DNA of 58,631 nucleotides, counting the filler, from Catajapyx aquilonaris (Eukaryota), in NCBI GenBank assembly GCA_000934665.2. It is 3 parts of 3 records of this genome, joined end to end, with 100 filler letters (N's around TTAATTAATTAA, not from the genome) between each part and the next. Parts side by side here need not be neighbours in the genome. Positions count along the whole stretch, not along the records: positions 19,599 to 39,079 come from JYFJ02006454.1; 2 more parts are not named here. The stretch is one strand, 5' to 3'. Below are positions 19,499 through 39,407 of the stretch, one piece after another. The position numbers and the translations under genes are program-made. Numbering within the stretch: position 1 is the first letter of the stretch; each line of letters opens with the position of its first letter. Below the pieces are notes generated by a model that saw only the letters and a program-made list of their open reading frames with translations, ran no database searches and was not told the DNA's origin.

Positions 19499-19598
19499 NN
19501 NNNNNNNNNNNNNNNNNNNNNNNNNNNNNNNNNNNNNNNNNNTTAATTAATTAANNNNNNNNNNNNNNNNNNNNNNNNNNNNNNNNNNNNNNNNNNNN
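19499..19598. other. Artificial scaffold linker (44N-TTAATTAATTAA-44N)
   Basis: A 12-mer with stops in all six frames, centred in exactly 100 nt. An identical linker lies at 39080-39179. Confidence 0.95.
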
Positions 19599-19917
19599 CA
19601 AAGTCCCTGTTACAGGGTGAAAGATGTGCAAACTGTGACAGGAGTTATGAACCACTCCTTTTCTGGTGTCAGACACCCACTATCAACCTACTGTCCCGTA
19701 TTCTCTCCAGCCGCAGCAGCCAGCAGGACTACAACAGGCTCCGCGTCCTCCAACGGATCAACTGTGCCCGGATGCCATGCCACATCGCCCGACTGAACGC
19801 TGCCTTGTTCCGACGTACGATTCCATGATGTATGGTCGACGACTCAGCACGTCAGTGCCGATCACGGTGCTTGCCTTTTGGGCGCCCTTTTGCCTTAAAT
19901 AGAAGAGCAGGAACAGG

Positions 19918-20223
19918 ATGACATTAACCTGTGCTACTGGCGATAAACTCAAAACGTCTGGTTGTTACTGGTTCAATCTGACAATAGGTAGTCATAAACT
20001 ACAACACAACTTTTGGGTCTCTGACATTAACATTGGTACAGATATTGATGGTATTATTGGAGTCGATTTCTTAGACTATTATCACGTCAATATTGTGTTA
20101 TCAAAGAAAGCAATAGACATATCTGGAGACTTAATTCCGTTAGTAGGAGAGAAGATTCCTCAGAGTACTAGTATAGTAAGGTTGGATGGCAAATTTTCCC
20201 AGCATTTTTTTTTACAAGGTTAG
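19918..20223 (+). mobile_element. LTR retrotransposon (Ty3/Gypsy-like) aspartic protease fragment
   Basis: ...HNFWVSDINIGTDIDGIIGVDFLDYYHVNI resembles the C-terminal half (D-x-I-I-G-x-D-F-L) of retropepsins. Confidence 0.6.
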
Positions 20224-20374
20224 GTTCACCATTTTAACCTAAGTTTTGGACCAATGCCATTTTTCAAATATCCTTCACCGTAAGTAAATAATATATTATC
20301 CTTTTCACGAGCATGCCAAAAATTACATGTCATTACGACTGCATACATTAAAATTTTGCATGGGTGTGCAATCC

Positions 20375-21835
20375 CTTGAGGTTTCTGCTCTTACTATAAA
20401 TCGACACACAGTCTTCTAAAACATATAATGAATTCTCTCTGGCAAAATTTGTACTGAACATTCGTACAAGATACTAAATGGTCTAACAGGAACTGGATTG
20501 GATCACAATCGAATAATCCTCTGAGAAATCGTCTGGATTTCAATCTAGATCCCAATTTAATAGCCGCTTCTAGTTCTTTATTCTTAACCAGGTGAATCAA
20601 TTGTTTTCTCAGCCGGTTCTGAATCATACCATCCCCTGTTTGGTCTTTATAAAGAGCTACGCGGTAGGGATTGATTGGAAGTTTCTCACCGGGGCGATCT
20701 CTTCTGATATTACTACTAGCCTTCGAAAGGAGAGCTTGGGACAGGTCCGGATCAACTGGGATCAAGAACATGTAGAGTGATAACCATACTGTCAGAAGAT
20801 CATTTTCTCCCTTTGTTAGGTAGGATTGGTATTCCTCCAAACTCTTGAGGGTCCAGCAACATTAACAACAGAGATCTAGTTCTCAATTGCCTTATCTCGG
20901 GATGTGACAATTGGCAGTAATGAAGACATGACATAAATGAGACGATGGTGGGTTCCATATCCACACACAGACACACATTCAGCAAATACTCCCTTGATCA
21001 TTTCGAGAGGTGTCGGAATGAGCAGGTTTGACAATCCGTGCATTTTTGCCCCTTTCTTTAATGTTATTGCCACCCATGCTCCGTCTAGAAGATACACTTT
21101 CCCGAACCCCAGGAATCTTCGAGTCCAGTAAGTCTCTGTCAATCTGACCTTAAATCCAAATTGATCATGTAAGTGGTTGTTGAAAGTTTCTAAGTATGCC
21201 TTTGGATCATCTTGGATGTCATGTTTCTGCACACTGACAACAAGTCTTGAGATCATCTCCATTTGCCATCAGAAAAGCAGTAACTCCAGCCTGGTCACAG
21301 ACATAACGAGCAACTGATTCATAAATCCAAGTCCAAAATTTCTGGTTCAATCCCTCTATGCCTCCCTGTTGACCATCCCAAGAGTACATAGATGAAAAAT
21401 CAGACAAGAAAACCAGTGACCTGTTAAATACATGCATTATATGCTGGAATTGTTATTGATCAAAAATTCTGTCAAATATTAATCTTCCAACAGGCTCACA
21501 TAATTCATTCCGGAAACAGTTGTTCCAGGCATCAATGTCAATTGATGTAAAAAAAAAAAACACACGAAATAGTCATCTGATCTGTTTATCAGGCTATAAT
21601 AAGCGTTCATCTTCTCAAACTTGCTTAACTCATTGGTGGTCATTGCTTGTGATGGGTTGTACAAGTCCATAAGGGTAGACATGATCTAATATGCATCTGC
21701 GGGCTCTCTCAACGGCTGGTGATGATCCAAACATTCGTCCTTCCTGCTTTAATTATAATTCTTTTTGAGTCAATATAATCACAAAATAATCAATTGCTTC
21801 AGGATCTTCCAAGTGCAATTTGCTCAAAATACTTC
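20375..21835 (-). pseudogene. Endogenous viral element: chuvirus-like (Jingchuvirales) L protein RdRp core, frameshifted
   Basis: Motifs in order across frameshifts: QKEL*LKQEGRMFG (premotif), SIDIDAWNNCFRNE (A), YSWDGQQGGIEGLNQKFW (B), MANGDDL (C, with GDD as in chuviruses rather than the mononegaviral GDN), ETYW...FGK, KKGAKMHGLSN and LLDPQEFGGIPI. Confidence 0.85.
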
Positions 21836-21865
21836 CTGACGGCTTGATGAGGATATTTGGTCGTT

Positions 21866-22185
21866 AAAAATCAGGATTCTCTTGATCATATGCCTCCAAC
21901 AGCAGCGTGTGTAAGACGGCAGCCGTCACTTGGTGTGCCTCTCTTGCCTTTTTAACGTGTGTCACCTGCAATGAAAGGCTCTTTTAGCGGCGCCGTAACC
22001 ACACTTCAAAATAATAATTACTAAACCTAAAGGAACACTCACCTTGAGTAAGGCATCCGCTGCGCCACTCGTTGTGATTCCTGCGTTGACCACAATTGAT
22101 GTCCATCCACAACCCTCCATATAACTACCCAGGACGCGAAAAAAATTCATTTCAATATGCAGAGGCCCAAGCAGGAACATAAATT
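21866..22185 (-). mobile_element. Fragment of a large invertebrate DNA-transposon protein (superfamily uncertain), intron retained
   Basis: LGPLHIEMNFFRVLGSYMEGCGWTSIVVNAGITTSGAADALLK, then a GT-AG intron at 21966-22042, then VTHVKKAREAHQVTAAVL. This matches the widespread GxLHIEM...GSGW...HAHQVT transposon protein family. Confidence 0.65.
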
Positions 22186-23149
22186 GAATCGAGCAAAAGA
22201 AGAACAGCACATGTCACCAAATGCAACTTTTTCAGGAGAGACAAAAAAACTGATTACAGAGCTTACCGTTCACGACTGACAGTCCATACTTTCGGCTATA
22301 TTAGCAGACAGGCATACGCTTCCAGAAATGTAATTTGGTTCTCAATACATTAATTAACTATTGAGATAATGTAAGTTAAAATGTGGACTTGTGCTGTTCT
22401 TCCTTAGGTTTTCCTTGAATTTTATTAACAAAATTAGAACAATGTGTCAGAATTAGAACACATTTATTGTAAATCAAAACATGTGGTCAGGAAAAGACTC
22501 TGGTATAATTTATATTTTATAACATTCATTGGATCAAAGGATATTGAAAGAAGAATATGGTAGCTATATGCTTGATGAAATGTGAACTCCTACTGGAAAA
22601 GTTGTTTATTTTCCTGACTAAGAAAATATCATTACAGTATTTCAGTACCCTTGGACATTATAAACTTGAACATTCTCTTATTTAGAATGCTTCCATTTTT
22701 TTAGTTGTGTAGGCCTATAGTTTATTTTTAACTTGACTTATTAAAGACATTGTACCACCGACTTCCTGTACCATACAGCTAATTCATCCCAGATATGTAC
22801 AGAGCAATTTGCCTGCAGAATCTACAAATAGTAGTGAATCCACTTTTCGTTTTACTGATAATAAAGCAGATAACTGGATTGTCATTGACTGCAAATTAAT
22901 GTAATGGACAGAACTCACTACATGCTTTGTTGGGCAAGTTATACCAATTTATAGACCATCTCTACACATTATAGACAACATGTACATTGTAGTATAGCCT
23001 ACATACACATTCCGTCTTCATGGCATTATATCCCATGACAGGGTGGCCAGCGATGACCATCAGGTATCACACCTGGCCATATCACATGATGGCAATACAA
23101 TGAATCCACTGCTGTCTGCTCAGGTACACACATAATAGGTATGCATTAA

Positions 23150-23308
23150 GGCCATTTCACAAAAAAATGTCGCGCGGCAAACGGCGCGCGTTGCGGCAAA
23201 GTTATTATTTATATTTATTATTGCCAACAATTGGCAACAATAAATATAAATAAAAAATTTGCCGCAACGCGCGCCGTTTGCCGCGCGACATTTTTTTGTG
23301 AAATGGCC
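23150..23308. mobile_element. TTAA-flanked palindromic MITE
   Basis: TTAA-GGCCATTTCACAAAAAAATGTCGCGCGGC...GCCGCGCGACATTTTTTTGTGAAATGGCC-TTAA. Confidence 0.8.
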
Positions 23309-23312
23309 TTAA

Positions 23313-23715
23313 GTCACGTTTCGAGTGTCGTGTAAGTCACGAAAGAAATGATTTATTTCTTGTAAAATTAATAACATAACACCAAGTTCACAATAATATT
23401 TTAATTTGGGTTTTTGAAAATATCCGCACCCCAATAACACTAACATTCAAGGCATAAATGTGAAGAATTTTACATTCATATCTGAAGCCTCTTTTACCAG
23501 TGGCTTTCTTCTCGTGTAAGTCACAGATTACTTTATACATTTATATAACTCAAATGAAATGTGCAACTGTTAAAATCAAAACATTAACACTTAGATACAG
23601 GCTGCATATTTATGTTTAAACACCATTTCCTTAAATGCTACGTTTGTGCTTTAAAAAATTAAAAGTTAGGCATAAACTGAGTGACATGTCGTGTAAGTCA
23701 CACGTGGAATTAGCC
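23313..23715. mobile_element. DNA transposon terminal fragment with repeated CGTGTAAGTCAC motif
   Basis: The motif occurs at ~23329, ~23514 and ~23690, and the segment ends in GTGGAATTAGCC. Confidence 0.4.
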
Positions 23716-23771
23716 AAATATAATCTATTCTCCTTCATTCACGCCAACTTTCCTCTGTAGAGGTCAATGAG

Positions 23772-23940
23772 CTCTAGACATTATTTTGGCTGCGATACGA
23801 AAAAAATGCTCTCCTGAAAAATGTGTCACCTTGCAACTGGGCCCTTTTGCATATCCATGCTTCGATCTTTTTCGTTGTTTTGTTACCCTCCCTCGCGACC
23901 CCAAATATTATGATCGCGACCCACAGTTTGGGAAGCCCTG
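23772..23940. mobile_element. hAT-like terminal fragment
   Basis: Ends in ...CACAGTTTGGGAAGCCCTG, a CAGGGCTTCCCAAACTG-type hAT TIR. Confidence 0.45.
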
Positions 23941-24033
23941 CCCTAAAGAAATACCTTACCTCACAAATCATCCGGTCGAATTCTTTCTGAATCACTGCCA
24001 CTCCCTGCGGAATTTCCTCCGTTTGAATAATAG

Positions 24034-26558
24034 CACTATGTAACACACTTTTTGTGTTTGGCAAGTGAGTGTTATGTCCTGCTTTCTTATGCCTAAAAAC
24101 TTGAGATAATGGCCATTATACCTGCCAAAGTTTGCCTTTGTGCTCAGGAGAATGACTTATATATTTTGCATATCCCCATATACGTACTTGGGTAACAAAT
24201 GTCAATTTTTATAAACAGACAATATTTAGAAATGTGTGGTTTTTCTAGATTTACGATTGTACTGCACATCACTTTCCCGAATTAGTCCCCATATGTAATC
24301 TCCCATCATGCTACCATTGTACTGTCCTTGGTATCGACGTTCAAAGGTCATCATATCTTGATGGAAGCGTTCGCCGTGCTCCTCTGAGTAATCTCCCATG
24401 TTCCGCTTGAAGTGATCCAAGTGAGCATCAAGGATATGGAGTTTGAGAGACATCCTGCAACCCATCTTGCCATAGTTCCTAACCAGAGTTTCAACCAGCT
24501 TCACATTGTTGTGGGCCTTATGATTCCCAAGGAAACCTTTCACTATTGCCACAAAGCTGTTCCCCTGCTATTTGTCGCGCGGCAAACGGCGCGCGTTGCG
24601 GCAAAGTTATTATTTATATTTATTATTGCCAACAATTGGCAACAATAAATATAAATAAAAAATTTGCCGCAACGCGCGCCGTTTGCCGCGCGACAAATAG
24701 CAGGGGAACTTCGTAAAACCACCTTGGAGACCCATCAGGAATGCCACAATTTTAAAATCTCCTATGACCTCCCACCTGTGCTCATCATACCTCAGTCGGT
24801 GCAGTAAAATCTTCACATTTTCATAGTCCTCTTTGAGATGCACTGACAGTGAGTGCGCCAGGGGAATAGTAGGTAACGTGTTCCCATTATGAAGCAGGAC
24901 AGCCTTGAGGCTCTTGCACGAACTGTCAATGAAAAGGCGCCACTCATTTTCACTGTATGTGATGCCGATTTCATCAAAAAGTCCTCTCACATCGCTGCAG
25001 AAACATAGTCCATCTTGACTGTTGAAGAAACTTGAAAAAACCTGGTGTCGCTTCCTCTGGTCTGTTATATGTACACTTTCGTCCAAAAGGTTCCACTGCT
25101 TGAGCCTGGAGGTCAACAGCTCAGCATTAGATTTTTTGAGTCCAAGATCTCTTATCAAATCATTCAGGTCTTGTTGATTCGGGAAATATGGCACTTGGTC
25201 CGAAGCAGAGTCGGTGAAATTAGCATCTTCATCTCCGTCGCTGTCTGATTGGCCACTTTCATAGGAGGATAACTGTTCTTTTGCTGCTGGTGGAGTGGGC
25301 ACTGGGTACTCTGTGCTGTGTGGCACTTGTGCGATTGATGAAGGAATGTCTGGATACACCGCTGCTTTTGCATTTTTACCAGATCGGCGTTTTGAAGGGT
25401 CCACCATGCAGAAGTAACAGTTGCTTGTGTGGTCAGTAGGTTCCCTCCAAATTCGTGGAATTGCAAACCTCATGGCCCTTTTCTCTCCTCTGTACCATGC
25501 TGCAGAGGAACAAAATTAAATGAATGTAAAACTAAGATATCTAGTGAGCAACAACTACCTTAATTTTACCTTACCTTCTAGAGTTCTTATGCAGTTCACG
25601 CAGGTGAAATGAGGTGCCCATGTTTTATCCTGATCTCCAACTGGCATTCCAAAATATGCCTTGTAGGCCTGACACATTCTCGATGATTCTTGTACAGGGT
25701 ACTTTTTCGCTCTTGTCTTGAGGAATTCACCACACACATAGCAAAATGAGTCCACTGGATGCTTGCAGCCTCTTGACGCCATGCTATGTACCTAGGTATA
25801 CAGTATAGTGCGTTTGGTGTGCAGCATGCTCCAGCAAAGCAAACCATACTGTCACTGTTGAGGGCGCTGTAGGAAACCGGAGCACTCTGAAATGATTGGC
25901 AGCTCGAAGAGGGGAGACACGAGGGAAAAACTTATTTCGGGAACCACCTGCATACAAAAAATTGCTAGGGTTGGGAATAAGAAATGATTGGAAGGTCAAC
26001 GAGGGGACGAGATTCAGAGACGTGTGGTCACCCAAATCACATGGCCCCAACATATGGTGTGACTAGTGCAGTTGTGTTTATAAGTACAAGGGGGACATTT
26101 CCCGACATCTTCTGTGACGTGGGTCAAGCAGGTCAGTCTGATCTTCAATTTTAATGCATGCGGCTTTTTGTCGGCAAGTGAGCGGGCGCCGAGCAGATCC
26201 GTCGGTGCGAAAAAAAAAGAGACGAAAATATGGGTACCCCTCAGGGAAAAAGAGTCATTACCCAGCCCTAATTGATCGGATGGCCTTGGAAACCACTCTG
26301 AAATCTGATAAACAGCTAAACGCAACTTTTTTGTGCATTTTCCAAAGGGAAATAATTTTAATTACTCTAATAAGTTAAAAAGAATTTAGCCGGGTCCCCT
26401 TCTTCTGTGATCGCCCTGTATACATATGATTGTCCTGGTCACAAAAGCAAACTTTTTACACCATAATTGCCATTTTCTGTACTTTCTAGACACGGGGAAA
26501 CTGAAACACACAATAAATGCCCAAACACAAACATAAAGTTAAAATTTGTTACATAGTG
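24034..26558 (-). mobile_element. Chapaev3 (CMC) DNA transposon with internally deleted transposase
   Basis: TIRs CACTATGTAACA...TGTTACATAGTG with flanks TAG/TAA. Transposase: MASRGCKHPVDSFCYVCG (25782), intron 25500-25574, RFAIPRIWREPTDH..CYFC, WRLFIDSS, GGFTKFPCYL, then a break, then WNSFVAIVKGFLGN...HILDAHLD...SEEHGERFHQD (to 24226). Confidence 0.8.
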
Positions 26559-26561
26559 TAA

Positions 26562-26735
26562 TCAACGAAATGCATAAGTGGCCTGAGAATATAGACCATA
26601 ATAGCACTAACATGATGCGTAACTGAATGCATCCCTTGTATAATAGGTCGCAACACTATATCCTGCGGCAACCCAGAAACTAACTTATGCAACTTAGGGA
26701 TGCCATAAACCAGTGGAATTTGGAAATGCGTGAAT
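26562..26735 (-). mobile_element. Penelope-like retroelement RT fragment
   Basis: IPLVYGIPKLHK...LRPII matches the Penelope PxxYGLPKIHK...LRPIV motif. Confidence 0.7.
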
Positions 26736-26744
26736 TCCAAAAAC

Positions 26745-27490
26745 CTATTCACTAGCAAAAATGTGCAGAGTGTCCGGCAATTTTTTGGCTGGTCTTCCCC
26801 CAGTTTGGAAGAGTCCAGAGCCACCGACGTCCAGCTCAAAAGTAGCCCCGTCGATCTTGAGTACATCTACTCGCAGTGAGACACGATAGCCCCTATCTCT
26901 TGCAAGTGATAAGAACGGCATCAGCTTCCTCCGCCTTGCCCTTGTCAGCTGGGAGAAGTCTTCACTTATGTGTATGTTAGTGTCCTTCAAATTTTTGCCG
27001 TTGAAAAGTATCGCTTGCTTGTCAGGAAAACGTAAGAATTTTGCAATAACCGGTCTGGTGTACGGCCCAGTCGGTGGACCCTCTCAAATTCTATCTTCTT
27101 GGGGTCATCGTGCAGTTTGAATTTAGTGATGATGTTTCTAATTAGTGTCTCAGACTCCGCCCAGGATTCTGTTGTTTTATCCTCTACACCGGCGTGAATG
27201 GTTCTGAAGGGTTGCCAACTGGTCGGTCAAATCACGTACGCGGTGGTCCGTATCACTCAACTGGGACTCGATAGTGGTTACCTTCGTGGACACAATTGAG
27301 AGGTCCTCCTGAATCCGGCCACAGCGGTCTTCAAGCTTCGATATCACCTGGTCCAGCCTGTCAACGATGCTTTGCTCCATCTTTGACAGGAGTTCCTGGA
27401 TCTCGGTGATTGACGCCATTTTTTCGGAGTCGAATAGGCAGAGCGAGACGAGAGGCGTGCGTCCAGGTCAGGAGCTAGGCGGCGTGTGAT
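26745..27490 (-). mobile_element. Non-LTR retrotransposon ORF1 (L1-type coiled-coil/RRM/CTD), frameshifted
   Basis: A coiled-coil ending LQNHSRR, then ESWAESE, IEFERVHR, RPVIAKFLRFPDKQAIL and IHISEDFSQLTRARRRKL. Confidence 0.75.
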
Positions 27491-27757
27491 TTAGTTTACA
27501 TTATTGTTAACAGTGCTTACAATTTGGTTTGTGTTCGATTGCAATTTTTCCATTGTATTGTTCATAGTATTCAGAGTTTTGTTGGTTTTTCATTGCTATT
27601 TATTGTTCTGCCTATGGCGCAGAGTTTGGTAGGTGCTTGGTCCGATTTTGGTCGTACTTACTTTTGAGTACGCAACTATTTCTCTCTCTCTCTCTCCCTC
27701 CCCCTCCCTTCCCCCTCCTCCACTCAATCTACTCCTCCTCCTTATCCTCAGCAGCCA

Positions 27758-28425
27758 TCATCTCATCCTGAGCAGCCTTCTTCTTATTTTTTTGTCATCA
27801 GCAGCCATCTTCTTGGCCAATAATATTCTATCCGGTTCCCGCAGAGCCAACACACTTATAGATGGAGAATCCGTAAGTTCCGGAAGCATGCAGTCAAAAT
27901 AAAATTGCTCCAATTTGAGAATTATCTGGGAAGTAAACTCCTCGTCTCGGAATATCTTGACCGTGACCATGTCACTGGGAAGCCAAACCACGAAGTCAGT
28001 GAATTAGGTTGCAGCACAGTAATTGCATCTGGATTTGATAATAATATGAATGCTGCTTCGGCAAATATAACTTTCCCTCCTCTTCCACCTTTTTGGAGGG
28101 GAAAATGGCTGATGCTTTCCACTGCTTCCGCGATGCTAACACATCTCCTTGACGTCCATGGGCACTTTACCTCCAGGATGAAGGAATCATCTATGTTCTC
28201 TCCATGGACAATCCCGTCTGGTGTCGCTCCGAGGAAGGGGTATTCTTTATCCACGTAAAGCCCGTACTTACTGCCAGTTTCCATTTCATATTGAGCTATT
28301 GCCTGTTCCTCATGGGCAAGGCCCCATGCCATGGCTTCTGTTTGCTTGAGGGATGAGTACAAAATCCTCCGCACCAGACCTGCAGAGAAGGTAGTAGACT
28401 TCTGGCACGCCACCTGCTTTGCGTA
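27758..28425 (-). mobile_element. YqaJ/lambda-exonuclease C-terminal part of a Kolobok(E)-type transposon protein
   Basis: AMAWGLAHEEQA...PFLGATPDG...ILEVKCP (PD-(D/E)XK) followed by FYFDCMLPELTDSP...LREP. Confidence 0.75.
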
Positions 28426-30563
28426 CACTCTTAGTTGCGGAGGCCATGACGGTAAAATCCACATCAAAAGGCCGGGGATACAGAGACTTGCTGACTGATT
28501 TGTGAAAGGGAAAACTCATAAGCCTGGCATTGAGTTGTTTCCGAGTGAAGATGTGCCTTTCAGAAACAGCTACCCTAAGAAAAAGCATAATTTCTTTTGG
28601 TCCGAAGGCTTCTAACACAACATGCATGGGGTCATACAGTAGGTCTTTTGTAATCGAAAAGTGCGCAATATCATTTAAAGACAGACCGACCATTTAATCC
28701 ACACTCTTGAGACATGTGTCGCTTGTCTTTCGCGGACTTGCAGTTTTCTATGGCCTCTACTTGTCTTTTCACTTCAGCATCTGTGCGCAGGTGGCATTGC
28801 CCATGATACGTGAGAGTGGCATAATCAGCACTACGTGCTAAGCAGGACCTACAGGGTCGTAAGACATTTGGACTGAATGATTCCTTGAACCCTGCGATGT
28901 TGTGGCATGCCAAAGCATCGCCAGTGTGACAGGGATGGACACAAAGACGAACAAACGTGGGTTTCGCTTAAATGAATGGTGTTTATTTTACCGTAGCTCA
29001 GAGGTACAAAAATAGGGGTAGGGAGAAATAGGAATATCAGAAGGATGGGAGAAGGGAGTGACCAGTCCCCGGGATATTGTCCCAGGAACTGGCCACGAGC
29101 GAAACGGGTGACGGGTTTTTATAGTGGGCAGAACAGGAGTGATGCATTGTGGGTACTAGGCATGTATTAGGCGAGAGTGTGGGTTGAATTATAATGGGTC
29201 GGAGAAGGGATCAGTACGGGGAGTGGTGCACTGTGGGTAGGAGGTCGAGTTTGATCGTGTAAAAAGAGGCACGGGAGTGGTGCACTGTGGGTGGGATGTA
29301 AGTTTGGTCAAATAGGGGGTGTTCCAGAAACAGCTCAATACTGTGATGGGTAATACTGTTACACCAGCATATGCCAGGAGGCACCCATGAAAACGTTCCT
29401 CTCCCTCGCATGTCTTCAACATAACCCCCTCATCCATAGATAAATTATTTACAGTAGCCACAAAATCTTGCAATAGTTCCTTTTTCATGCTGGCCAGTTT
29501 TAGGTCACTAGACTCTCCTACACCTAATAAATGAATATGGCACAGCTTAGATCGTAGAACAGGTGGGACATTCAGGAACACCACATAAAAGAAACACATT
29601 TTACCCCTTCCGCCACGTTTCATCCCCAATGGATTGGCGAGTTCTACGTCATCATTGTAGAGGAGCATCTTAATCAGATTTCCCTGCTCGTAATACTTTT
29701 GTGCAATGGGATGTGTATGAAACTTACAACCATCTGTAAAGTCTTTCATCAACCCTGCTTCCCCTTGGTGTGATGATTGCCTAAAAATGGTAAGCATTTC
29801 CTTGCATTTCAGCAAATGTTCTGATAGAGCCACAAGAGGGATTGCGTATGCTTTTCGACTACTAACAGAGAGCAAAACCTCACGTGGTTCTACATACAAG
29901 CCCTGCTGACGATACAGTGCTTTCCTGCTTTTGTCCCTTTTCAACCGCTTCAGGTCAAGCTCAATACCACTTATGTCAATGATGTTTGATACATGAGCCA
30001 CCACAGAGTCAATTAGCACTTTTGAGGCTCTGTGATGTCCCTCTAATTGCCTGCACATTTTCTCTACTTCTAACTGCACTTTTTCTTCTACTCGCACTGA
30101 ATAATCTTTTGATCCACCAATATTACTACCATTTGTCTTTCCGCTATGTCAGTTGCCTGAGTAGCACTCGGCACTAAAAAGCATCTATCATGCCGATTAT
30201 GTGCTTCATACCGTACAGGGTACTCAAAAGTAACCGCTTATTTTGGCTGATACCGCTATAATGCATGCGCGCATCGTCTCCGCGCATCACGTGATATACA
30301 ACAACGAATTCAAACGTTACCTGTAACATCTAGATAATATCTAAGCCTGCTTACTTAGACGTTACATGAGAGGTCTGCAACGTCTCCGCCTTGGAGACGT
30401 TACAACGTAATATCTAACCCTGTATATATTCGACCAGACGTTCCCAGATACGTTTAAAACATGTAGTAACGTCTAACATTACACAATTCACAGCTTTTGT
30501 AACGACTAAAGTGTGACATGAACGTTACATGGACGTTACATGGACGTTACCAGTCTAAGAGTG
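28426..30563 (-). mobile_element. EnSpm/CACTA (CMC) transposon, truncated transposase interrupted by a solo LTR
   Basis: LYNDDVELANPLG...FLNVPPVLRSKL...AYAG/DALACHNIAGFKESFS..RPCRSC...DPMHVVLE. The ends are CACTCTTAG (28426) and CTAAGAGTG (30563), with subterminal ACGTTAC repeats at 30315-30550. Confidence 0.78.
28925..29363 (-). mobile_element. Solo LTR
   Basis: TGTGACAG...CTGTTACA termini and a 4-bp TSD CCAG. TATAAAA precedes AATAAA on the minus strand. Removing it restores the EnSpm frame A-G-D-A-L. Confidence 0.85.
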
Positions 30564-31245
30564 CATGAACCGTTCAGCTGGGTTGCTGGTCTTATGCTGA
30601 ACCAAAGAGTCTGAGAGAGAAGAGAGCCGAATGACGGCGGATCCTATTATTTCAGCCAACATTCCCACTTTTTTTAACGTGTCCACTTGACTCTCGCTTC
30701 CGTCTTCTTTCTGGAGGCAATCATCTGCACAAGAGGTATGCTGGCCAAATACGTGTAAGGGCAAGTTCTTTAAATCCATTTTCAGTTTTTCTGCATCACC
30801 TTCATCGGTCACATTGTCTATCATCGACTTGTCTGTATACGTCAATGATCCCATATTGGTCTTCAGTAACTTTCTAGCGGCAAGTCCATCTGGGCCTGGA
30901 TAGGAGCGAACGTTTGCGGCTGTCCTCTCCAGTTTGCTACGAAAGTTTCGCAGAGCATGATTTACGCACTCCACCTTCGTAACTGGGAGATGTCCTGCGT
31001 ATTTGACGCGTTCCCTATGAATCCCTATGAATCACCGATAAATCGCCGTCACCCACGATGCTGTTGCAAATTATGCCGTGCTCTTCATAAAGCCTATTCA
31101 AACCGTCAACAATTATGTCAGATTCCATGGGCGTGGAAGACTCGGACCAGTCGGCATTGCAAGCATTGTCAAGGGGAGTCCTTTGGCTTCTGCATATTTA
31201 TATATTGCGCACCCCCGCAAAGAGGACTTTCCCTGTGACCCTGTT
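30564..31245 (-). mobile_element. Kolobok-type (Mutator-like) DDE transposase fragment
   Basis: VTGKVLFAGVRN, SSTPMESDIIVDG...IVGDGD, KVECVNH, HVFGQHTSC and TSNPAERF. Confidence 0.75.
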
Positions 31246-31882
31246 TAGAGGCTACCATTTACGTGCAATCCGAACCAAAGTGCATTATTATGTCAACGAT
31301 TAGGCCGTAAGCGGACTATGGCGGGAGCACATTTTTGTACACGTTTTCTCTATTATTTTCATGCCAAGGCATCGGAGGATCATAACACCCTCTAATTGAT
31401 ATCTGGGGAATGATTTGGTGATTCCAACGATGTGAAAAAATCGCACATGTTTTTGTTTGACAGTATAGTAAATGGTGGGGGAGAACCCAGCTGTCCTTCG
31501 TCCAGATGTCAATCACTTATTCCCTCGAAATTATCCACTCTGATTTAGATAACACTGATCTACAACGCGCCTAGGGCAGGCAGGTAAACTCAAAAGGGAA
31601 TAGGTAACATCGCACAAAAAGGGAGGGGGGGGGGAGGATGCTTGCATCATTCGGCCCCAGGTCCAGCGGGGTCCTCCTCCATCGGGCTGGCACCCAGCTG
31701 GGTGTCTTCCACCGCCGTCGCAGTCACAGGAGCAACACCGCCGTCTGCCACTCCCACTGCTGCTGCTGCCCGCGGGTCGCTGGTCCCCAGATGACCGGCC
31801 CGTCCCCTCCAGCCGGTTACCTCCGTCCGCAGGATGTCCAACTGCCACCTCAAGGCTCGGATCTCCTCCCCAACAACTGCGA

Positions 31883-32650
31883 TCACTGGCGGACGATCTC
31901 TCTCAGTTGGTGCAGCCATCGAAAGCTTACGCACGCCTGAGGTATGTCCTGTGGTGGCAAGTCCACAGGGTTGTGGCCCGCATCGAGGGTGATCCCCATC
32001 TCTGCAAGCAGCCTGGCCTGTGAAAGTGTCAACTTCTGGGCGGGGTACCACCCCAGTAAGTTGACGTTCGCTTGCCACGTCTCTTGGGCACCGGCTACCG
32101 GTGCACCAAAGTGAGCGTGTCTCCACACGTCCAAGTTCCATTCCGGGTCGAATCCTGGATTCATGGTGGCCATCAGATCTGAGTACAGCCTCGCGACGAG
32201 CACACCTGGTGTCATTACACCCATGTACATCGGCAGGGTATCGTCTGTCATGTTCCCCCACATTCCAGGAATCCGCACGCCGCCATATCGTGCACTGTGC
32301 ACTGGCACTCTGTCCACATTCCAGTACATCGTCTGGCCTGATCGGGTATCCAGATCTCCTATCATCGATAGGGCGTAGTAAATAGGGAGTGGTGTTTCGG
32401 TCTTTCCCAATTCCATCCCGTGGATAACATTGAAGTACCGTGGTGGTAGCTGTCCATGGTGCTCCAATAGGGCGGCTTTCCGTGCCCATAGCAGCATTGA
32501 GCAAAAGAGCTCGAACTGCGTCAGACTCATCCTCTCTGCCCAGGCCGGCGCGTTCCTCGCCATCTGACAGTATGTCTCTCTGACTATTGAGACGAAGCCT
32601 GAATCGTCGGTGGTATAGTCGTTTCCACGTTGGGCGCCACTTTCGCGATG
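31883..32650 (-). pseudogene. Endogenous viral element: partitivirus-like capsid protein fragment
   Basis: An open frame of ~250 aa: DDSGFVSIVRETY..M, FELFCSMLLWAR, PLPIYYALSMIG, PGVLVARL..DL, WNL and NLLGWYPAQKLT..Q..L...GIT. The pattern is recalled from invertebrate partiti-like virus coat proteins and has not been searched. Confidence 0.65.
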
Positions 32651-32663
32651 GATTAACTCGTAG

Positions 32664-32899
32664 GTCTTACCCAGGGCGCTGAAACCGAAGTACACACTCA
32701 CTGTTTCGGGACAATCTCTCCTTTTATTCCTCTAAGCGTCTATATACATGTCTAGTCTCTTATGCTCTCCTGGGCTCTCTGCCACCTTTCCCCCCTTTCC
32801 CCACCTCCACGACCCACAACCCCCAACACGAGGGTGCGGCCGAGGAGGGGAGAGGGACCAGCGGCGGGCGGCGCAAACTCCCGCCGTTATAATCTGTCA
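32664..32899 (-). mobile_element. LTR-like fragment abutting the capsid EVE
   Basis: On the minus strand it starts TGACAG and carries TATATA then AATAAA before a U5-like tail. No clean CA end or TSD was found. Confidence 0.4.
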
Positions 32900-32972
32900 A
32901 AGGGGAACACCATCCCGACGCCTTTTGATGATCTTCTCTCTCAGTGCAACAGACAACGCTCTTCTCGCCATG
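32900..32972 (-). mobile_element. Tc1-like transposase N-terminal HTH fragment
   Basis: MARRALSVALREKIIKRRRDG. Confidence 0.4.
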
Positions 32973-33099
32973 GTTCTTCGCTGTGATGAGTCATAGGCAG
33001 CGATTTATCATGCCTTTTTTAGCCAAGATGGGCTGATTCCCCCCTTCCACCAATTCCAAGCACAGTATATAGTTTCGTAAAGCATAATGAAATTGATGA

Positions 33100-33627
33100 T
33101 CATTCATTGCACCTCTTCCTGTCCTGGTGTCTCCTCTTCAGACTGATGGCAGAGTACGTATCCCATACGACGTCTACGCGGAGCACGCCCAGCTTTACAC
33201 TGGCATCCCTGATGTGCTTCGCTAGGTAGGCAGCGTAGTCACTGAAGCTGCGCATAGTGTCAGGAGGTTTGAAGCTGTGGACTAGTACTGCTCCATCAAA
33301 CACGATGCCGTCTGCAAATTCAGGATTTGTGTTTGGTGCCAACTTTTACAGGACTTGGACTAAGTGTGACTTGTTGCCACTTCGCATCATTCCATTCACT
33401 GACACTGAAGGAGGATAAGCTTGATTTTCATATTCAAAGAATGAGTCTAAATTGAGTGCCCTGGCAGTAGAGATTGTGAACAATCTAGAGTACAGCTGTA
33501 CTTCAGATCTAAGTGTCCTTAAAGGCGACGCTCCGCTAAATATATGAGGAGTTGGATCGAAAAACTTGATAACCCTCACAGGCACACTTTTGAGAAAAGT
33601 GCATTTTTGTATATTTTTGCATCGCAC
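33100..33627 (-). mobile_element. C-terminal fragment of a large DNA-transposon protein (same broad family as 21866-22185)
   Basis: LYSRLF...LDSFFEYENQAYPPSVS.NG.MRSGNKS.L and DGAVLVH...RVDVVWDTY..SLK. Confidence 0.65.
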
Positions 33628-33739
33628 GAATCACAATCCTCTCACAAATGTGAAATCCGGCGTGAAGTAGCAATGACCTTGGTCGTGTCCAAGGTCATGA
33701 ATGCCAAGATTGTAAGCCCAAATTTTGCTCCTCATCCTC

Positions 33740-34740
33740 TCCAAGTCGTCCATTTCAGACAACTTCGCGTCACAGATGAAGCATTTCATAGATGTTGTTG
33801 TCACCCAAACGGGTGTAAGGATACGACAGGGTTCAGCTTAAGGTATATAGTCTGGTGACCCGGGGTAGCTTGCCCCCTGGGGTAACTGGTTGTTTACTGC
33901 TATCCTTTTACATATGTTGTCATGGTGTTTGCTTACCCGGGGTCATCAGACTAGGGCCCTAAGTCCTCTTTTATTGGCGTGTCAAGGGTTAGGAAATGAT
34001 ATCAAGGTAAGGTATAGGGTGGAATGACCAGCGGGTCCCCCATCAAGGAGGAGCACCGACTGGCCTCGAGTAGTATAATGCGACAGTATTTATACCAACG
34101 ATATAATATGGCATGATGGGTAGATTTATCAAGGCGAGCGGTCAGGATAGCCAAAGTGTATATCGGTTGATCAAGGACAAAGTGATGGACAGGAGGAGAG
34201 AGTAAAGTTGGTTCAGGGAAGCATTGAATCGGCGTCAAAAAGGACTTTTGGTCACATTGTGTTTGTCAACTCATTGCCAACCTGTCAAGAATGTAATAAT
34301 AAAATTATGCCTCTAGATATCAACATAACTTGCGTGTATACGGAAGAATGCTAATAATACTGACCTTTCCGTCCACCATTGTCATCATTAGGGAAAAATT
34401 GATGGTATCTGGTTCCACTTGAAGGGGCTGCAGGTTGGCTATTTGGTTCTCTATGTACTCTTCTTTTTTAATGGTTTCCTTTGATTCTTGTATCCATTGC
34501 AAGTGGATGGGGCGGCAGAATGAGGACGGGCGAGGGTTTTCCCAATGGTGTTGTCCGGTGTTGTCATCAGTGAGACGGAGAGTAACCAGGGCAGTAGTAA
34601 ATAAACTTTCATCTGAAGAAGCAGTACTTCCTTATTTCCATTTCTGCTTATATCGGGAGTGACCCGAGCTGCCATCAAATCCCCACTTGCAAGTACAGAG
34701 TGCAAGTCGTTGGAGACTCAAAAGGAGGCAACATTTCCAA
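33740..34740 (-). mobile_element. Transib transposase fragment (RAG1-related) interrupted by a solo LTR
   Basis: KWGFDGSSGHSRYKQ, WENPRPSSFCRPI and TMVDGK, then an intron at ~34284-34365, VGNELTNT, the LTR insertion, and TSMKCFICDA. Confidence 0.8.
33799..34256 (-). mobile_element. Solo LTR containing a small MITE (33848-33953)
   Basis: TGTCACCCAAA...TTTGGTCACA termini with 4-bp TSD TTGT, and TATAAA then AATAAA on the minus strand. The inner TIRs are TAGTCTGGTGACCCGGGGTA and TACCCGGGGTCATCAGACTA. Confidence 0.8.
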
Positions 34741-34761
34741 AATCCTGGTGGTAGTGTGATA

Positions 34762-35112
34762 TAGTGGAGCATCGATTATCCGAACAGAGTCTGCCAAGGG
34801 GGTGTTCGGATAACTGATTGTTCGGATAACCGATCATTTACGGAAAAAAATGTACCGGTGTCATAGGAGCAATATGAAACTAAGAAACAGTGATATTAAC
34901 CACAAAACTATATTTTCTGCACAGGCAGGTCTTAAAAATACTGTACATATACCTTACTGTCCTTACATGTAGTCCTGCAGTTTAGGGGGGGAAACGGCGT
35001 TTTTTTGTTTTTTGGGTGGTTTTGGTTGTTTTTTTGGTTTTTTGCCGACCCGAAAACGTTCGGTTAACCGATGGTTCGGTTGATCGGTGTTCGGATAATC
35101 GATGCTCCACTG
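34762..35112. mobile_element. Tigger/pogo-type MITE
   Basis: TIR (C/T)AGTGGAGCATCGATTATCCGAACA, flanked by TA, with internal TTCGGATAA repeats. Confidence 0.8.
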
Positions 35113-35354
35113 TAGTATAAAACACGGCACTCGGGAGTTAAGAAGTGAAAAAAAGCACACAAGGCCCGGTATGTTGGGAATCCAGTATAGTACCTTACGT
35201 CCGAGTCACTTTTGTGGAATCTCAGTAAGGTGAAGCTGGTCTTGTCACGCATGTGTAGCAAATCCACGTACTTTTTTCGTATTTCCACATCACCACCCGA
35301 ACTTTCACTTGATGATTGCCCGTCACTTGCCTTTTCAGAATCGGAATGCACCAC
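35113..35354 (-). mobile_element. THAP/ISL2EU-Harbinger-type transposase fragment
   Basis: DSDVRYYTGFPTY...FFHFL motif, which typically precedes the HTH/DDE_Tnp_4 domain. Confidence 0.5.
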
Positions 35355-36054
35355 CTACTTCTCTCCCACACCGGCCCTCACCCCAGGGCACCTTTGACAA
35401 ACAATCTAACCTCAGCGATTATCCTGCTCATGTCCCAGTTGCTAGACAACTGTTAGAACAACAATATTACCCAAGATGCCTCAGCCTGGCTAATGGAAAA
35501 GGATAGGGAGTAGGTCCTCTAGGTATACATAGCAGAACTCTTTGAGCACAACACGTACCAAGCACATTTCCGCTGTCCCTCCATTTATCATCATGCTGAG
35601 TTCTGCCACGTAGCTGGCTACATTGGGAGAAGTGTCATTCGAACAGGGCCTGCAAGAACAAATAGAAGTGCCTCGCTCTCGTTGAAACTCAACCCCTCCA
35701 GCTGCCCGACGACTTGCTGCTCGCAGGGACACCCTCTGCGCCGGGATACCGGGGAGTTTATCCGTTTTCACAAATTACTGTGGGTGATGGTAACCCGCTA
35801 CTTGTGCGGCTTTAGTGTGCAAACAATGGAGAGGTTTTTTTCTGCGGAGTTGGGCGAGTTCACAGGACCCCCCCCCCNCCCCCCCCCCCCCCCATCTAAT
35901 ATCCACCCTGCTATAAACCCTAATCAGGTTATCACGGGCAAGCTCTTTGATCACGGGGTATTAGATTTTTTTTTTGTTAAAAAAAAGCACCAATAATTTA
36001 CCGTGGGTGAAAAATGCCAGCTGAGCCTCCAATTCAGTAATCCTTTTGGCTTCA

Positions 36055-36430
36055 TCACTGATCGTTTGCTTCATCAAGCTTTCCGTAATGGAATTGTAAC
36101 CCTGCGTTTTTAGACATGTCCCCACTGTAATAGTACAGTACTTCAACAGATTCTGCAACAAAGATGTCATCAATTTTGTTGCCAACCAGGCAGATGAGGA
36201 TCAGAACACCAGCTCCCATCCTCAGAGCTGCCTGCTCCACTTCTGATCCTGTGGCTGTGGCTCTAGCCAACTGGCAGAGAATATCCGATGCTTCTTTTCT
36301 GGCTTTAGCAGCCTCAATTAAGGGCTTGACAATAGGCCCAAATGAACCCAAAAACAGCCTGTCGGGATTTTCGATACCTCTGAGTCTGCCAAACTCCTGC
36401 ACTATCTGCATAAAGTGAATATTGAACATG
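36055..36430 (-). pseudogene. Probable transposon accessory-protein exon (EnSpm ORF2-like)
   Basis: An acceptor precedes the protein-like frame IVQEFGRLRGIENPDRLFLG.... The family assignment is tentative. Confidence 0.3.
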
Positions 36431-37056
36431 TTGTGAATGTTGGACAGCAGATACCTAAAAAGATTCATAATAGACAACATTGGAAAAATATGCTAGTTAT
36501 TATTATACCTCCTCTGGAGTGAGCAGGGCTGAGTACATAACTCGAATCTCCGAAATTGACATGGCCTTATTTTTCACCTGGGTTCTCCGGTGATAACAGA
36601 GTGGCTTGCATCCCGACATCGAGTCGCTTCATGTCTGGATGTCTTTGTGCGAAAGAGAGAGTGATTGCAATTCATCCCATAGCAAAACCATTATACCAAT
36701 TGAAGGCCTTGGGGAGAGAAGAACACAAGTCCATGAGAGCAAATTTTTCAGGAGAGCTGTTTTTATGTTTTACGGGCCATTGAAGAATCTTATCGTAACC
36801 AAAGTTTGCACAATGGTATTGCGACTAGTGCCTCATGTTCCTATCACACTTAGGTACCATTTATGTTTTTACCACTGATGACCTTGAAGGTATTGCCCTC
36901 AACAATGGTTGTACTTGTGCTGTTTTCTTCGAAATCCTGAAATATATCAGTACAAAATATTCTTCCCAGTGTGTGACAATCTTTATTTCCATTATTCTGA
37001 CTCTTTCAAGTACAGCATAATATTATTACACGCCCATTGACTTGCATGATGCCATC

Positions 37057-37570
37057 TCAGCTGCTTTCTGCTTCCTCGTCTTCCGACTGACTGTCATGTC
37101 CCTCGGCAACCAAACTCCGATAAGATGCAACACTCTGTGGCTTTCTCAAGAATGGGATAAGCCCGAAGAGATCCCGTAGCTTTCCTGGTTTGATGGGTAC
37201 ATGACCCGAGTAGAGAGGTGCGAACATGCTGACATCACCTTTTGTCCCGGATTGTACAAGTTTGCCATGGGCCATTATATGAAAACCTCACGTCTACTGT
37301 GTTTCTCTTCTGTGCAGTGTACCTAATCATTATGATGTCTCTTAGTTTCAAGGGAGGTCGCGGAGTGTTCAAATAATGTGGCTTGAGAGCTGCCTTAATA
37401 TCGCAAAACACATTTCTCTCAGGCTTCACGAGTCCAAAGGCGGAAGGTTGCTGTCTTGCCGTTACAACAATGTCATCCCACTCATTCGGTGTTTCAGCAA
37501 TATTGAGTCGCACGGTGTGGAGAGATCAGTTGAAAGTCTTGATCATTAGCCATGAATGAATGGCCTTGTC
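37057..37570 (-). mobile_element. Sola-like transposase C-terminal fragment
   Basis: GHSFMANDQDF, TPNEWDDIVVTARQQP and PIKPGKLRDL. A short YNLGIHD fragment of the same type lies at ~33640-33730. Confidence 0.6.
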
Positions 37571-38448
37571 ACCCATTTCACTGCCCCCATTTTCTGTGTA
37601 GAAGGGAGCCCCATGGTCGGTGCCCCATTGTATGATGGGTGCGGGTGCCGATCATGGGGTATTTAAGGAAACCTGCTACACTGCCTCTGGGGAGTAGAGG
37701 CTGGTCGGCCTCTGCTTCCAAGGCTGCTAAGCGTGCTGCCATCGCCGCCCTCTGAGGCCCATCCTCCCCACCCACGGAGCCGGGGCCGCAGCTTCCGGGT
37801 TCTTCGCCCCCTCCTCCTTGTACCCCAGTGGCCGGACCCACTCAGACAAAGGCGGCAGGGCCGCCAGGGGAGCGGAGGATCCGATGCGGGGGACCACACT
37901 ACGTTCCACTATCCGTGGCGGCTCCATAACATGCCGTTCCGGCCAAGCCTTCCAAATGGCCGAAACAATGGTAAACGTGAGCCCCCACAGAACCACGGTC
38001 CACTTCCTGGGCGTACACCGGGGTGGGATACTGGACCCCCACGGAGTGGGTCACCACAGGAGCCACAGGACCCGGGGCCGGGCCCACCGCAACAGCGCCC
38101 CCAGGACGACCCGAGCGCCGGCGGTTGCCCCGGGCACGGGTCGGAGCGGACGAGCGACCGCCCCAGGCAGACGGGCGGCCACCTCCCCGGCCACGACTGG
38201 CAGCAGCAGCATGCTTAGGACCCATGTTCAGGCAGGGTGGCACAGACAGTACCGGCACACACTCAGCGGGCGAGGATGCAGGCGGATTCCGGGGAAACGA
38301 TGCGACGCACAGAGCCACGAGGCCAGCCCAGCCAGGAAAGCAGGGGGGGACAGGTAGCACAAAGAGGGGAAATGACGTCACAGCGAGGACACCGACGCCA
38401 GGAGGAGCGCTCTAGCTCTCCTAGTGGTGGCCCATCCCACTAGATGGG

Positions 38449-39070
38449 GTGATGAGTCTTCAGAAAAAAGTGCGTTCCACCCGCGCCCTTTTTGAACGAA
38501 AGACATTCAGATGCTGGTGCAAAGCTATTCAAGCTCACATTCTTCAAATATGCAAGGATGTTTTCGTTGTTGTAGGTCTCGGCCAGTTTTTTAAAGGCGA
38601 TCTGACACTTGCCTGTAAACCCGCTCTTGTCGCGGTCTATCCTCTCGTTCCAGGTGAGCCATACGAATGCGCTGCACAGCAATTTCTTTTTTAAAAAAAA
38701 TAATGTCCATAAAAATCCATGGGCTAGGGTGATTTGCAGAAAATTTTGACCCAAAACCGTGATGCCATCCTTCCAGGCTGTTATTGGTTCTCATATAACC
38801 ATGCAGTGAGGCCACCCTCTTTGTCAGAGAACTTGATTGTGACCTGGTCCGGTATGCGGGCCTCAAGCCACTAGGTGGCCGCAAGGGTGATCCGTTGAAT
38901 TGAATCCCCTCAAAAACGCACTCGTAAAAAACGCGCCAAGTCTTCCGCCGAAAAAACCTGTGAGATAGTGTCTGGGAGCCGAGCCTTGTCCACTCCGCCG
39001 TACAAAGTCGTGAGATCGTGGTGGACGCCAAGCCTTTCTTCGAGGCTATAAGCTAAGTGAGATGACTTGG
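38449..39070 (-). mobile_element. MULE transposase C-terminal fragment
   Basis: RTNNSLEGWHHGF...HPSPWIFMDII. Confidence 0.7.
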
Positions 39071-39079
39071 CCGGACTTG

Positions 39080-39179
39080 NNNNNNNNNNNNNNNNNNNNN
39101 NNNNNNNNNNNNNNNNNNNNNNNTTAATTAATTAANNNNNNNNNNNNNNNNNNNNNNNNNNNNNNNNNNNNNNNNNNNN
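39080..39179. other. Artificial scaffold linker (44N-TTAATTAATTAA-44N)
   Basis: Same design as 19499-19598. Confidence 0.95.
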
Positions 39180-39407
39180 GCACCAGTGTTCCAAACAAAT
39201 GGTCGCCAACACAGAAGCGTTGTAAACAAAAAGTCGCCAACGCAGCAGCGTTCCAAACAATGGGTCGCCAACGCACCAGCGCAGCGTTCCAAACAAAGGG
39301 TCGGCAATACAGAAGCGTTGTAAACAAAGGGTTGCCAACGCACCAGCGCAGCGTTCCAAACAAATGGTCGCCAACACAGCAGCGTACCAAACAGAGGGTC
39401 GCCAAGA
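39180..39407. repeat. Tandem minisatellite, ~7 units of 31-36 bp
   Basis: Unit approximately GCAGCGTTCCAAACAAATGGTCGCCAAC(ACA/GCACCA). Confidence 0.8.

Follow-up and report, generated by a model that had tools for sequence, protein, structure and literature searches.

Known one-strand piRNA loci and the Catajapyx scaffold

Currently, one-strand clusters of fragmented transposable elements (TEs) that hold virus fragments are already described as loci producing PIWI-interacting RNAs (piRNAs) in mosquitoes, flies, and Daphnia. In Aedes aegypti, the main cluster of endogenous viral elements (EVEs) is presented, in the part of PMC7161354 that deals with it, as a series of TE-EVE hybrids "in the same coding strand" from which a single long antisense transcript is produced, with phased piRNAs. 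For Daphnia, "as for other arthropods," PMC9175491 also reports long RNAs that are transcribed uni-directionally from fragmented TEs, and in a survey of 48 arthropod genomes primary piRNAs came from 81.4% of the EVEs inside piRNA clusters vs. 35.7% of those outside (10.1101/396382). Here we analyze a complete scaffold of Catajapyx aquilonaris (JYFJ02006454.1, assembly GCA_000934665.2), 19,481 bases long and located at positions 19599–39079 of the window, i.e., the whole stretch of 58,631 nucleotides (filler included) that was analyzed, in which it lies between two other pieces. A preliminary description of this DNA had proposed a flamenco-like piRNA cluster. We consider that the scaffold could be a piece of a one-strand (unidirectional) arthropod piRNA source locus, a candidate to which we give slightly less than an even chance.

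The closest described counterpart is the Aedes EVE cluster 38 (PMC7161354), in which remnants of non-retroviral RNA viruses are also interspersed with pieces of transposons that share their coding strand, within a repeat-rich, gene-free region. As described in that source, however, the Aedes locus is much longer (~143 kb), its antisense transcript has been mapped, it gives phased piRNAs and has a putative promoter carrying a Cubitus interruptus site, and it contains blocks of long terminal repeat (LTR) retrotransposons, whereas DNA transposons dominate the identified content of the scaffold. The Drosophila flamenco and flam-like clusters, as far as they are characterized in the sections concerned of PMC10643416, are likewise arrays in which transposon remnants are strongly biased to one strand; they differ in reaching hundreds of kb, in their selective enrichment of env-bearing Gypsy elements in antisense, and in having been validated by small-RNA sequencing, while the sole gypsy-type candidate found here, a weak one, is on the opposite strand. 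The uni-directional piRNA loci of Daphnia magna, in the account given in PMC9175491, are long one-direction arrays of fragmented TEs in a non-dipteran arthropod, although they were defined from small-RNA reads and the scaffold from DNA only. What is particular here is the DNA-transposon-rich content, and that the array includes a fragment of a partiti-like capsid.

Orientation of the relics along the scaffold

Six units of the scaffold have tool support, and all of them code on the minus strand: a fragment of a viral RNA polymerase (L), a DNA transposon with the gene for a protein of ~560 amino acids (aa), a Mutator-like element with a YqaJ-type exonuclease domain, an EnSpm-like element nested in the latter, a capsid fragment, and a tail resembling that of a Mutator-like element (MULE). 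Facing these six there is a single weak candidate on the plus strand, a strong one-sided bias as expected of a unistrand cluster, and the non-retroviral virus fragments lie on the same coding strand as the neighboring transposon fragments, as in the Aedes type. The two-sided binomial probability is 0.031 for six of six units on the minus strand and 0.125 for six of seven. The preliminary description had counted 17 minus insertions out of 18, with a binomial probability of 1.5e-4. The minus bias holds, both in the supported units and in the excess of open reading frames (ORFs) described next, but the count of 18 could not be reproduced and its probability has to be replaced by the two values given above. 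The labels Penelope, long interspersed element (LINE) ORF1, Tc1, Sola (twice), Transib, ISL2EU, and two solo LTRs found no support in Pfam, in Pfam searches of read-through frames, or in the Protein Data Bank (PDB). Some of the ORFs behind these labels may be transposon-like, judging by motif resemblance.

The bias is also evident when homology is left aside. We counted the ORFs of at least 100 aa on both strands and compared them with 300 dinucleotide-preserving shuffles, made locally in windows of 1 kb. On the minus strand there are 24 such ORFs (3796 aa) vs. 7.1±2.3 in the shuffles, with a maximum of 13, so that 0/300 reach the observed number. The plus strand, with 11 ORFs (1530 aa), is at chance level (10.0±2.6 in the shuffles, 123/300 of which reach 11). 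Stop trinucleotides are equal by strand (866 and 850), and the plus strand is pyrimidine-rich, with a purine fraction of 0.483. No excess of comparable size appears in the neighboring scaffolds of the window (9 plus/7 minus and 8 plus/9 minus). Between 20.4 and 39.05 kb, relic coding capacity is thus found essentially on the minus strand alone, and only this strand has an excess of long ORFs.

These data bear on a rival explanation, that we are looking at an ordinary repeat-rich scaffold, heterochromatic or unplaced and with no small-RNA function, whose orientation reflects few independent events, nesting, and the picking of the window after many had been looked at. Only six or seven units are supported by tools, the pieces with Mutator and YqaJ domains belong to a single element (see below), at least nine of the labels in the preliminary description could not be confirmed, and repeats of very high copy number form the scaffold end, as in short unplaced scaffolds. 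Nevertheless, the excess of long minus ORFs is spread over the whole range from 20.4 to 39.05 kb, it is reached by none of the shuffles while the plus strand stays at chance, and unrelated families that include two viruses cannot have a common insertion mechanism. We regard this explanation as unlikely.

Virus fragments and transposon remnants

Two fragments of RNA-virus genes, both low copy and on the minus strand like the transposase remnants, were recovered from the scaffold. The first (20397–21848, minus strand) is part of a Mononegavirales-type RNA polymerase L, interrupted by stops and frame shifts as an EVE, and is supported by PF00946, by its translation, and by a DNA contig. Two ORFs match parts of the PF00946 profile, 21222–21452 (E 6.6e-8, 31.2 bits for a cut-off of 27, profile positions 671–714) and 20879–21268 (E 3.1e-6, 25.7 bits, profile positions 736–836), while the limit at ~21848 was set by eye from the read-through frame.

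The second is a single-copy fragment (31850–32850, minus strand) with an open frame of 282 aa (31886–32731) that we assign, indirectly, to the capsid of a partiti-like virus. A word-based search, Pfam families, and a PDB sequence search all gave no match for this ORF, whereas HMMER against 1.84 billion representatives retrieved 47 matches at E ≤ 1e-3 (best 3.8e-11), with ~23–30% identity. Among the ten best relatives, seven are on contigs of 1.5–1.8 kb, while wasp or sawfly genomes contain two; such short single-gene contigs would fit a small viral RNA segment. We aligned the ORF with 35 of the 47 relatives and modeled the best relative (predicted local distance difference test, pLDDT, 86.7). 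In BFVD, the fold of this model matches capsids predicted for Verdadero virus, Orestiada partiti-like virus, Galbut virus, and fungal partitiviruses; 46 entries were matched at E ≤ 1e-3, with a best value of 1.7e-26 and a template modeling (TM) score of 0.72. Among solved structures the top rows are also partitivirus capsids, with weak values (E 0.19–1.1). By tblastn the fragment covers ~31850–32850, equivalent to approximately residues 20–346 of ~470. The predicted product therefore appears distantly related to those of arthropod partiti-like viruses (Verdadero, Galbut, and Orestiada) and of their endogenous copies in insect genomes; this copy differs in being partial and integrated in host DNA. 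The partitivirus capsid named in the preliminary description is thus supported, though indirectly, and the association of its relatives with arthropods makes an arthropod host likely.

Between both virus fragments, two pieces that flank an EnSpm-like element and had separate labels in the preliminary description correspond to one insertion. The YqaJ-type exonuclease part (27925–28425, minus strand; PF09588 E 3.5e-12, in ORF 27925–28515), which is the 3′ half, and the Mutator-like transposase part (30564–31197, minus strand) are joined directly, 28425 to 30564, in DNA contigs from three runs of one sample at depth 41–52. This joint indicates that the Mutator-like transposase (PF20700) and the YqaJ-type exonuclease domain are parts of the same element, into which another one was inserted. 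PF20700 is matched by two minus-strand ORFs, 30558–31031 and 31018–31197 (E 1.6e-11 and 1.4e-9; 44.2 and 37.9 bits for a cut-off of 26.5). The nested element, whose boundaries follow from the same joint, is 2138 bases long (28426–30563, minus strand) and has both termini, beginning with CACTCTTAG at 28426 and ending with CTAAGAGTG at 30563. We take CACT(A/G)-type terminal inverted repeats to mark the CMC/EnSpm (CACTA) superfamily, and with these termini the element can be called EnSpm/CACTA-like. A target-site duplication of 2–3 bp was looked for, and the flanks (GTA and CAT) show no direct repeat. The 319-aa ORF inside (29192–30148, minus strand) has no Pfam and no PDB match; in the Atlas it is closest to an unnamed cluster (0.93) and to one in which 13% of the members carry Plavaka (0.91), which is a lead only.

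To the left of this element there is a DNA transposon of nearly complete length, whose terminal inverted repeats are imperfect (24111–26479, minus strand). Its inverted arms (24127–24163 and 26419–26455, extended further by eye) bound it, and it is thus nearly full-length rather than a terminus-less fragment. Within the gene (24229–25782), the 301-aa ORF 24613–25515 has 195 relatives at E ≤ 1e-3, proteins of ~560 aa with no Pfam domain that are 43–70% identical and come from fish, mantis shrimp, wasps, mosquito, and leech. This spread of hosts suggests horizontal transfer. Searching by tblastn with five of the relatives placed residues 1–338 at 25782–24694 and residues 446–562 at 24579–24229, so that residues ~339–445 (~107 codons) are lost, and a copy (24559–24709) of a MITE-like (miniature inverted-repeat transposable element) repeat sits at that point. 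Joints of deletion derivatives of the transposon (24330 to 26418 and 24965 to 26367) were also seen in DNA contigs. The twin copy of the MITE-like repeat (23146–23312, no strand assigned) is a palindrome of ~165 bases, with 82-nt arms that are 96% complementary and a 3-nt loop, and it is present at very high copy (depth 5200–6600 in bin 22849–23498).

At the right end of the scaffold, a very high-copy repeat (depth 4600–7800) contains a candidate C-terminal remnant of a MULE-like transposase (38443–39052, minus strand), suggested by the Atlas. Its 153-aa ORF 38594–39052 has its top Atlas match at 0.95, with 180 shared features (unnamed clusters, a lead only), and one cluster at 0.94 has PF10551 MULE on 11% of its members. 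Two further minus-strand ORFs at 26552–27467 have no tool support; by their motifs, the first (26552–26866) may resemble a reverse transcriptase (RT) N-terminus and the second (26748–27467) a LINE ORF1. Neither Pfam (E ≤ 0.5) nor PDB searches gave a relevant match for the ORFs of this region, and ORF 27180–27467 (minus strand) has weak coiled-coil Pfam matches only. The only plus-strand candidate is a possible retropepsin-like ORF (19903–20220), weakly similar to RVP_2 (E 0.18, 12.1 bits for a cut-off of 20.3) and with no relevant match in a PDB sequence search. It had been described as a Gypsy protease and the only plus insertion; it is still the sole plus candidate, but its identity is weak, with a match below the cut-off.

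The preliminary description had found no recognizable host gene in the block, and neither did we with Pfam. The scan covered 133 stop-to-stop ORFs of at least 56 aa (69 plus and 64 minus) and 150 of the 199 ORFs of 35–59 aa, with nothing credible among the latter. Significant matches were restricted to five of the 133 ORFs, all on the minus strand: Mononeg_RNA_pol (two ORFs), YqaJ (one), and Mutator PF20700 (two). Repeating 79 ORFs at E ≤ 0.5 added only the weak RVP_2 match, and frames read through with X at stops over 32700–35601 on both strands gave no Pfam family in 12/12 frames. PDB sequence searches with the capsid ORF, the capsid profile, and the ORF1-like, RT-like, protease-like, and EnSpm-like ORFs retrieved nothing relevant. 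The content had also been described as mostly terminus-less fragments, which is correct in part, with at least two exceptions that have termini (the transposon of the ~560-aa protein and the EnSpm-like element). Rfam and tRNA scans of the window gave no match.

A second explanation would make the scaffold part of a host gene's transcription unit (a long intron, the region of 3′ read-through, or a non-coding transcript of great length), where sense insertions are purged, because they bring splice and polyadenylation signals, and antisense remnants accumulate. It is established that transcribed regions are biased against insertions in sense orientation, which favors this possibility. In introns, though, such a bias is usually moderate, and the one found here is almost complete and extends to the decayed genes of DNA transposons. 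No exon-like ORF with a family match was found on either strand along the 19.5 kb, and polyadenylation signals are only slightly fewer on the plus strand (AATAAA, 10 plus vs. 13 minus; ATTAAA, 4 plus vs. 8 minus), which is no clear strand signal either way. Two published observations lend weight to it: the suggestion, in the legend of Figure 8 of PMC10643416, that sense insertions may introduce polyadenylation signals, and the dependence of mosquito core piRNA clusters on read-through from upstream genes, as stated in the summary of 10.1101/2022.08.22.504762. Owing to this dependence, transcription from a host gene and a piRNA source locus may in fact overlap. As an explanation in its own right, we find a host intron or read-through region decidedly unlikely.

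Outside the block, in 300 stop-to-stop ORFs of at least 60 aa scanned with Pfam over positions 1–56132 of the window, the only match was TPR_12 on a neighboring scaffold. This is an uninterrupted ORF of 786 aa (15481–17838, plus strand) made almost entirely of TPR_12/TPR_10 repeats, with best matches only ~30% identical, repeat-driven, and belonging to bacteria, fungi, and Hydra. The third piece starts with a tandem array (39184–39405) with periods of 31, 67, or 98 bases and 74–82% matches. By blastn at E ≤ 1e-5, the scaffold has no common repeat with the two other pieces of the window.

Assembly and the case for a possible piRNA source locus

The three window pieces have similar lengths (19498, 19481, and 19452 bases in descending order, the arrangement expected when scaffolds sorted by size are joined) and are separated by artificial linkers at 19499–19598 (N runs 19499–19542 and 19555–19598) and 39080–39179 (N runs 39080–39123 and 39136–39179), each one with 44 N, TTAATTAATTAA, and 44 N. 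Any feature spanning either linker would be an artifact. Since the scaffold is bounded exactly by the linkers, its edges are assembly ends, its neighbors in the window are not genomic neighbors, its extent is uninformative about the size of the locus, and the promoter and flanking genes are out of view.

We used reads to examine the integrity of the scaffold. No RNA run was listed in the single run search made for this DNA. Four runs classed as "DNA?" from a single 2014 sample, probably the assembly's own data, contained 0.68–0.74 of the sampled words, and three of them were used for contigs, together with a 2022 run of uncertain kind that contained 0.01. The latter matched repeat parts only, and 0.46 of its aligned material continued unlike the scaffold; it therefore says nothing on expression. 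Exact DNA contigs of 1–2 kb cover unique parts (20261–22208, 26536–27579, 31854–32983, and 35879–36871). Contig depth was 24–34 in the region of the L fragment (20261–22208) and 25–28 in that of the capsid (31854–32983), compared to ~40–67 over 24919–26196, 29395–30213, and 30564–31130, and reached thousands in bins 22849–24148, 33249–33898, 34549–35848, and 38449–39079. The split between 24–34 and 40–67 could separate haplotype-specific from two-haplotype sequence, or one copy from two.

All repeats interrupt the DNA contigs, and no contig runs through the entire scaffold, so that they give no independent confirmation of the order of its pieces. Together with the small size of the scaffold, the 2014-era sample, and a bimodal depth in unique parts (~25–35 vs. 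~55–65) that could mean haplotype-specific sequence, this leaves room for an assembly artifact, i.e., a chimeric or haplotype-specific scaffold in which the order and orientation of the pieces are not those of the genome. We consider this very improbable, given that unique parts are covered by exact contigs of 1–2 kb, that the orientable units are internally consistent, including a nested insertion with matching termini, and that random mis-joins would randomize orientation, not align it.

If the scaffold belongs to a one-strand piRNA source locus, a promoter located outside it would drive a long plus-strand transcript. This transcript would cross nested DNA-transposon remnants, a certain amount of debris from retroelements, and the two fragments of RNA-virus genes, which all code on the minus strand, and its processing would yield piRNAs antisense to transposon and viral messages. 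It is from the architecture of the scaffold that we infer transcription and its direction, the production of small RNAs, and a silencing or antiviral effect. That architecture, unrelated transposon remnants and two unrelated virus fragments in the same orientation, is the part of the flamenco-like proposal that stands. The antisense enrichment in env-bearing Gypsy elements that defines flamenco-like loci was not found: Pfam gave no RVT, integrase, gag, or env match in the block, and the scaffold is consequently not flamenco-type in the strict sense.

Several points weigh against a piRNA source locus. The scaffold is a candidate from DNA, of just 19.5 kb and with no visible promoter or flanks. 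The homology-based orientation statistic is, by itself, marginal (0.031 to 0.125), and with one unit nested in another the units are not fully independent. Protein-family matches are absent from the right third (33–38 kb) on both strands in the Pfam searches, gypsy-type retroelements are almost absent, their single candidate being on the opposite strand, and the window was chosen by a reader seeking such patterns, which entails ascertainment bias.

More broadly, the genome of C. aquilonaris might carry many one-strand piRNA loci, made up mainly of DNA-transposon remnants instead of gypsy-type retroelements and archiving RNA-virus fragments, of which this scaffold would be one piece, a wider proposal that we hold as rather doubtful. 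If it were true, the principle known from flamenco would also apply to cut-and-paste elements and to double-stranded RNA (dsRNA) viruses that persist in arthropods. For the scaffold itself, small RNAs from the plus strand would make it a one-direction piRNA locus of a non-model arthropod, dominated by DNA transposons and holding a partiti-like capsid fragment. Partiti-like viruses are a group that persists in insects, and such a locus would bear on how far heritable small-RNA memory reaches over cut-and-paste elements and dsRNA viruses.

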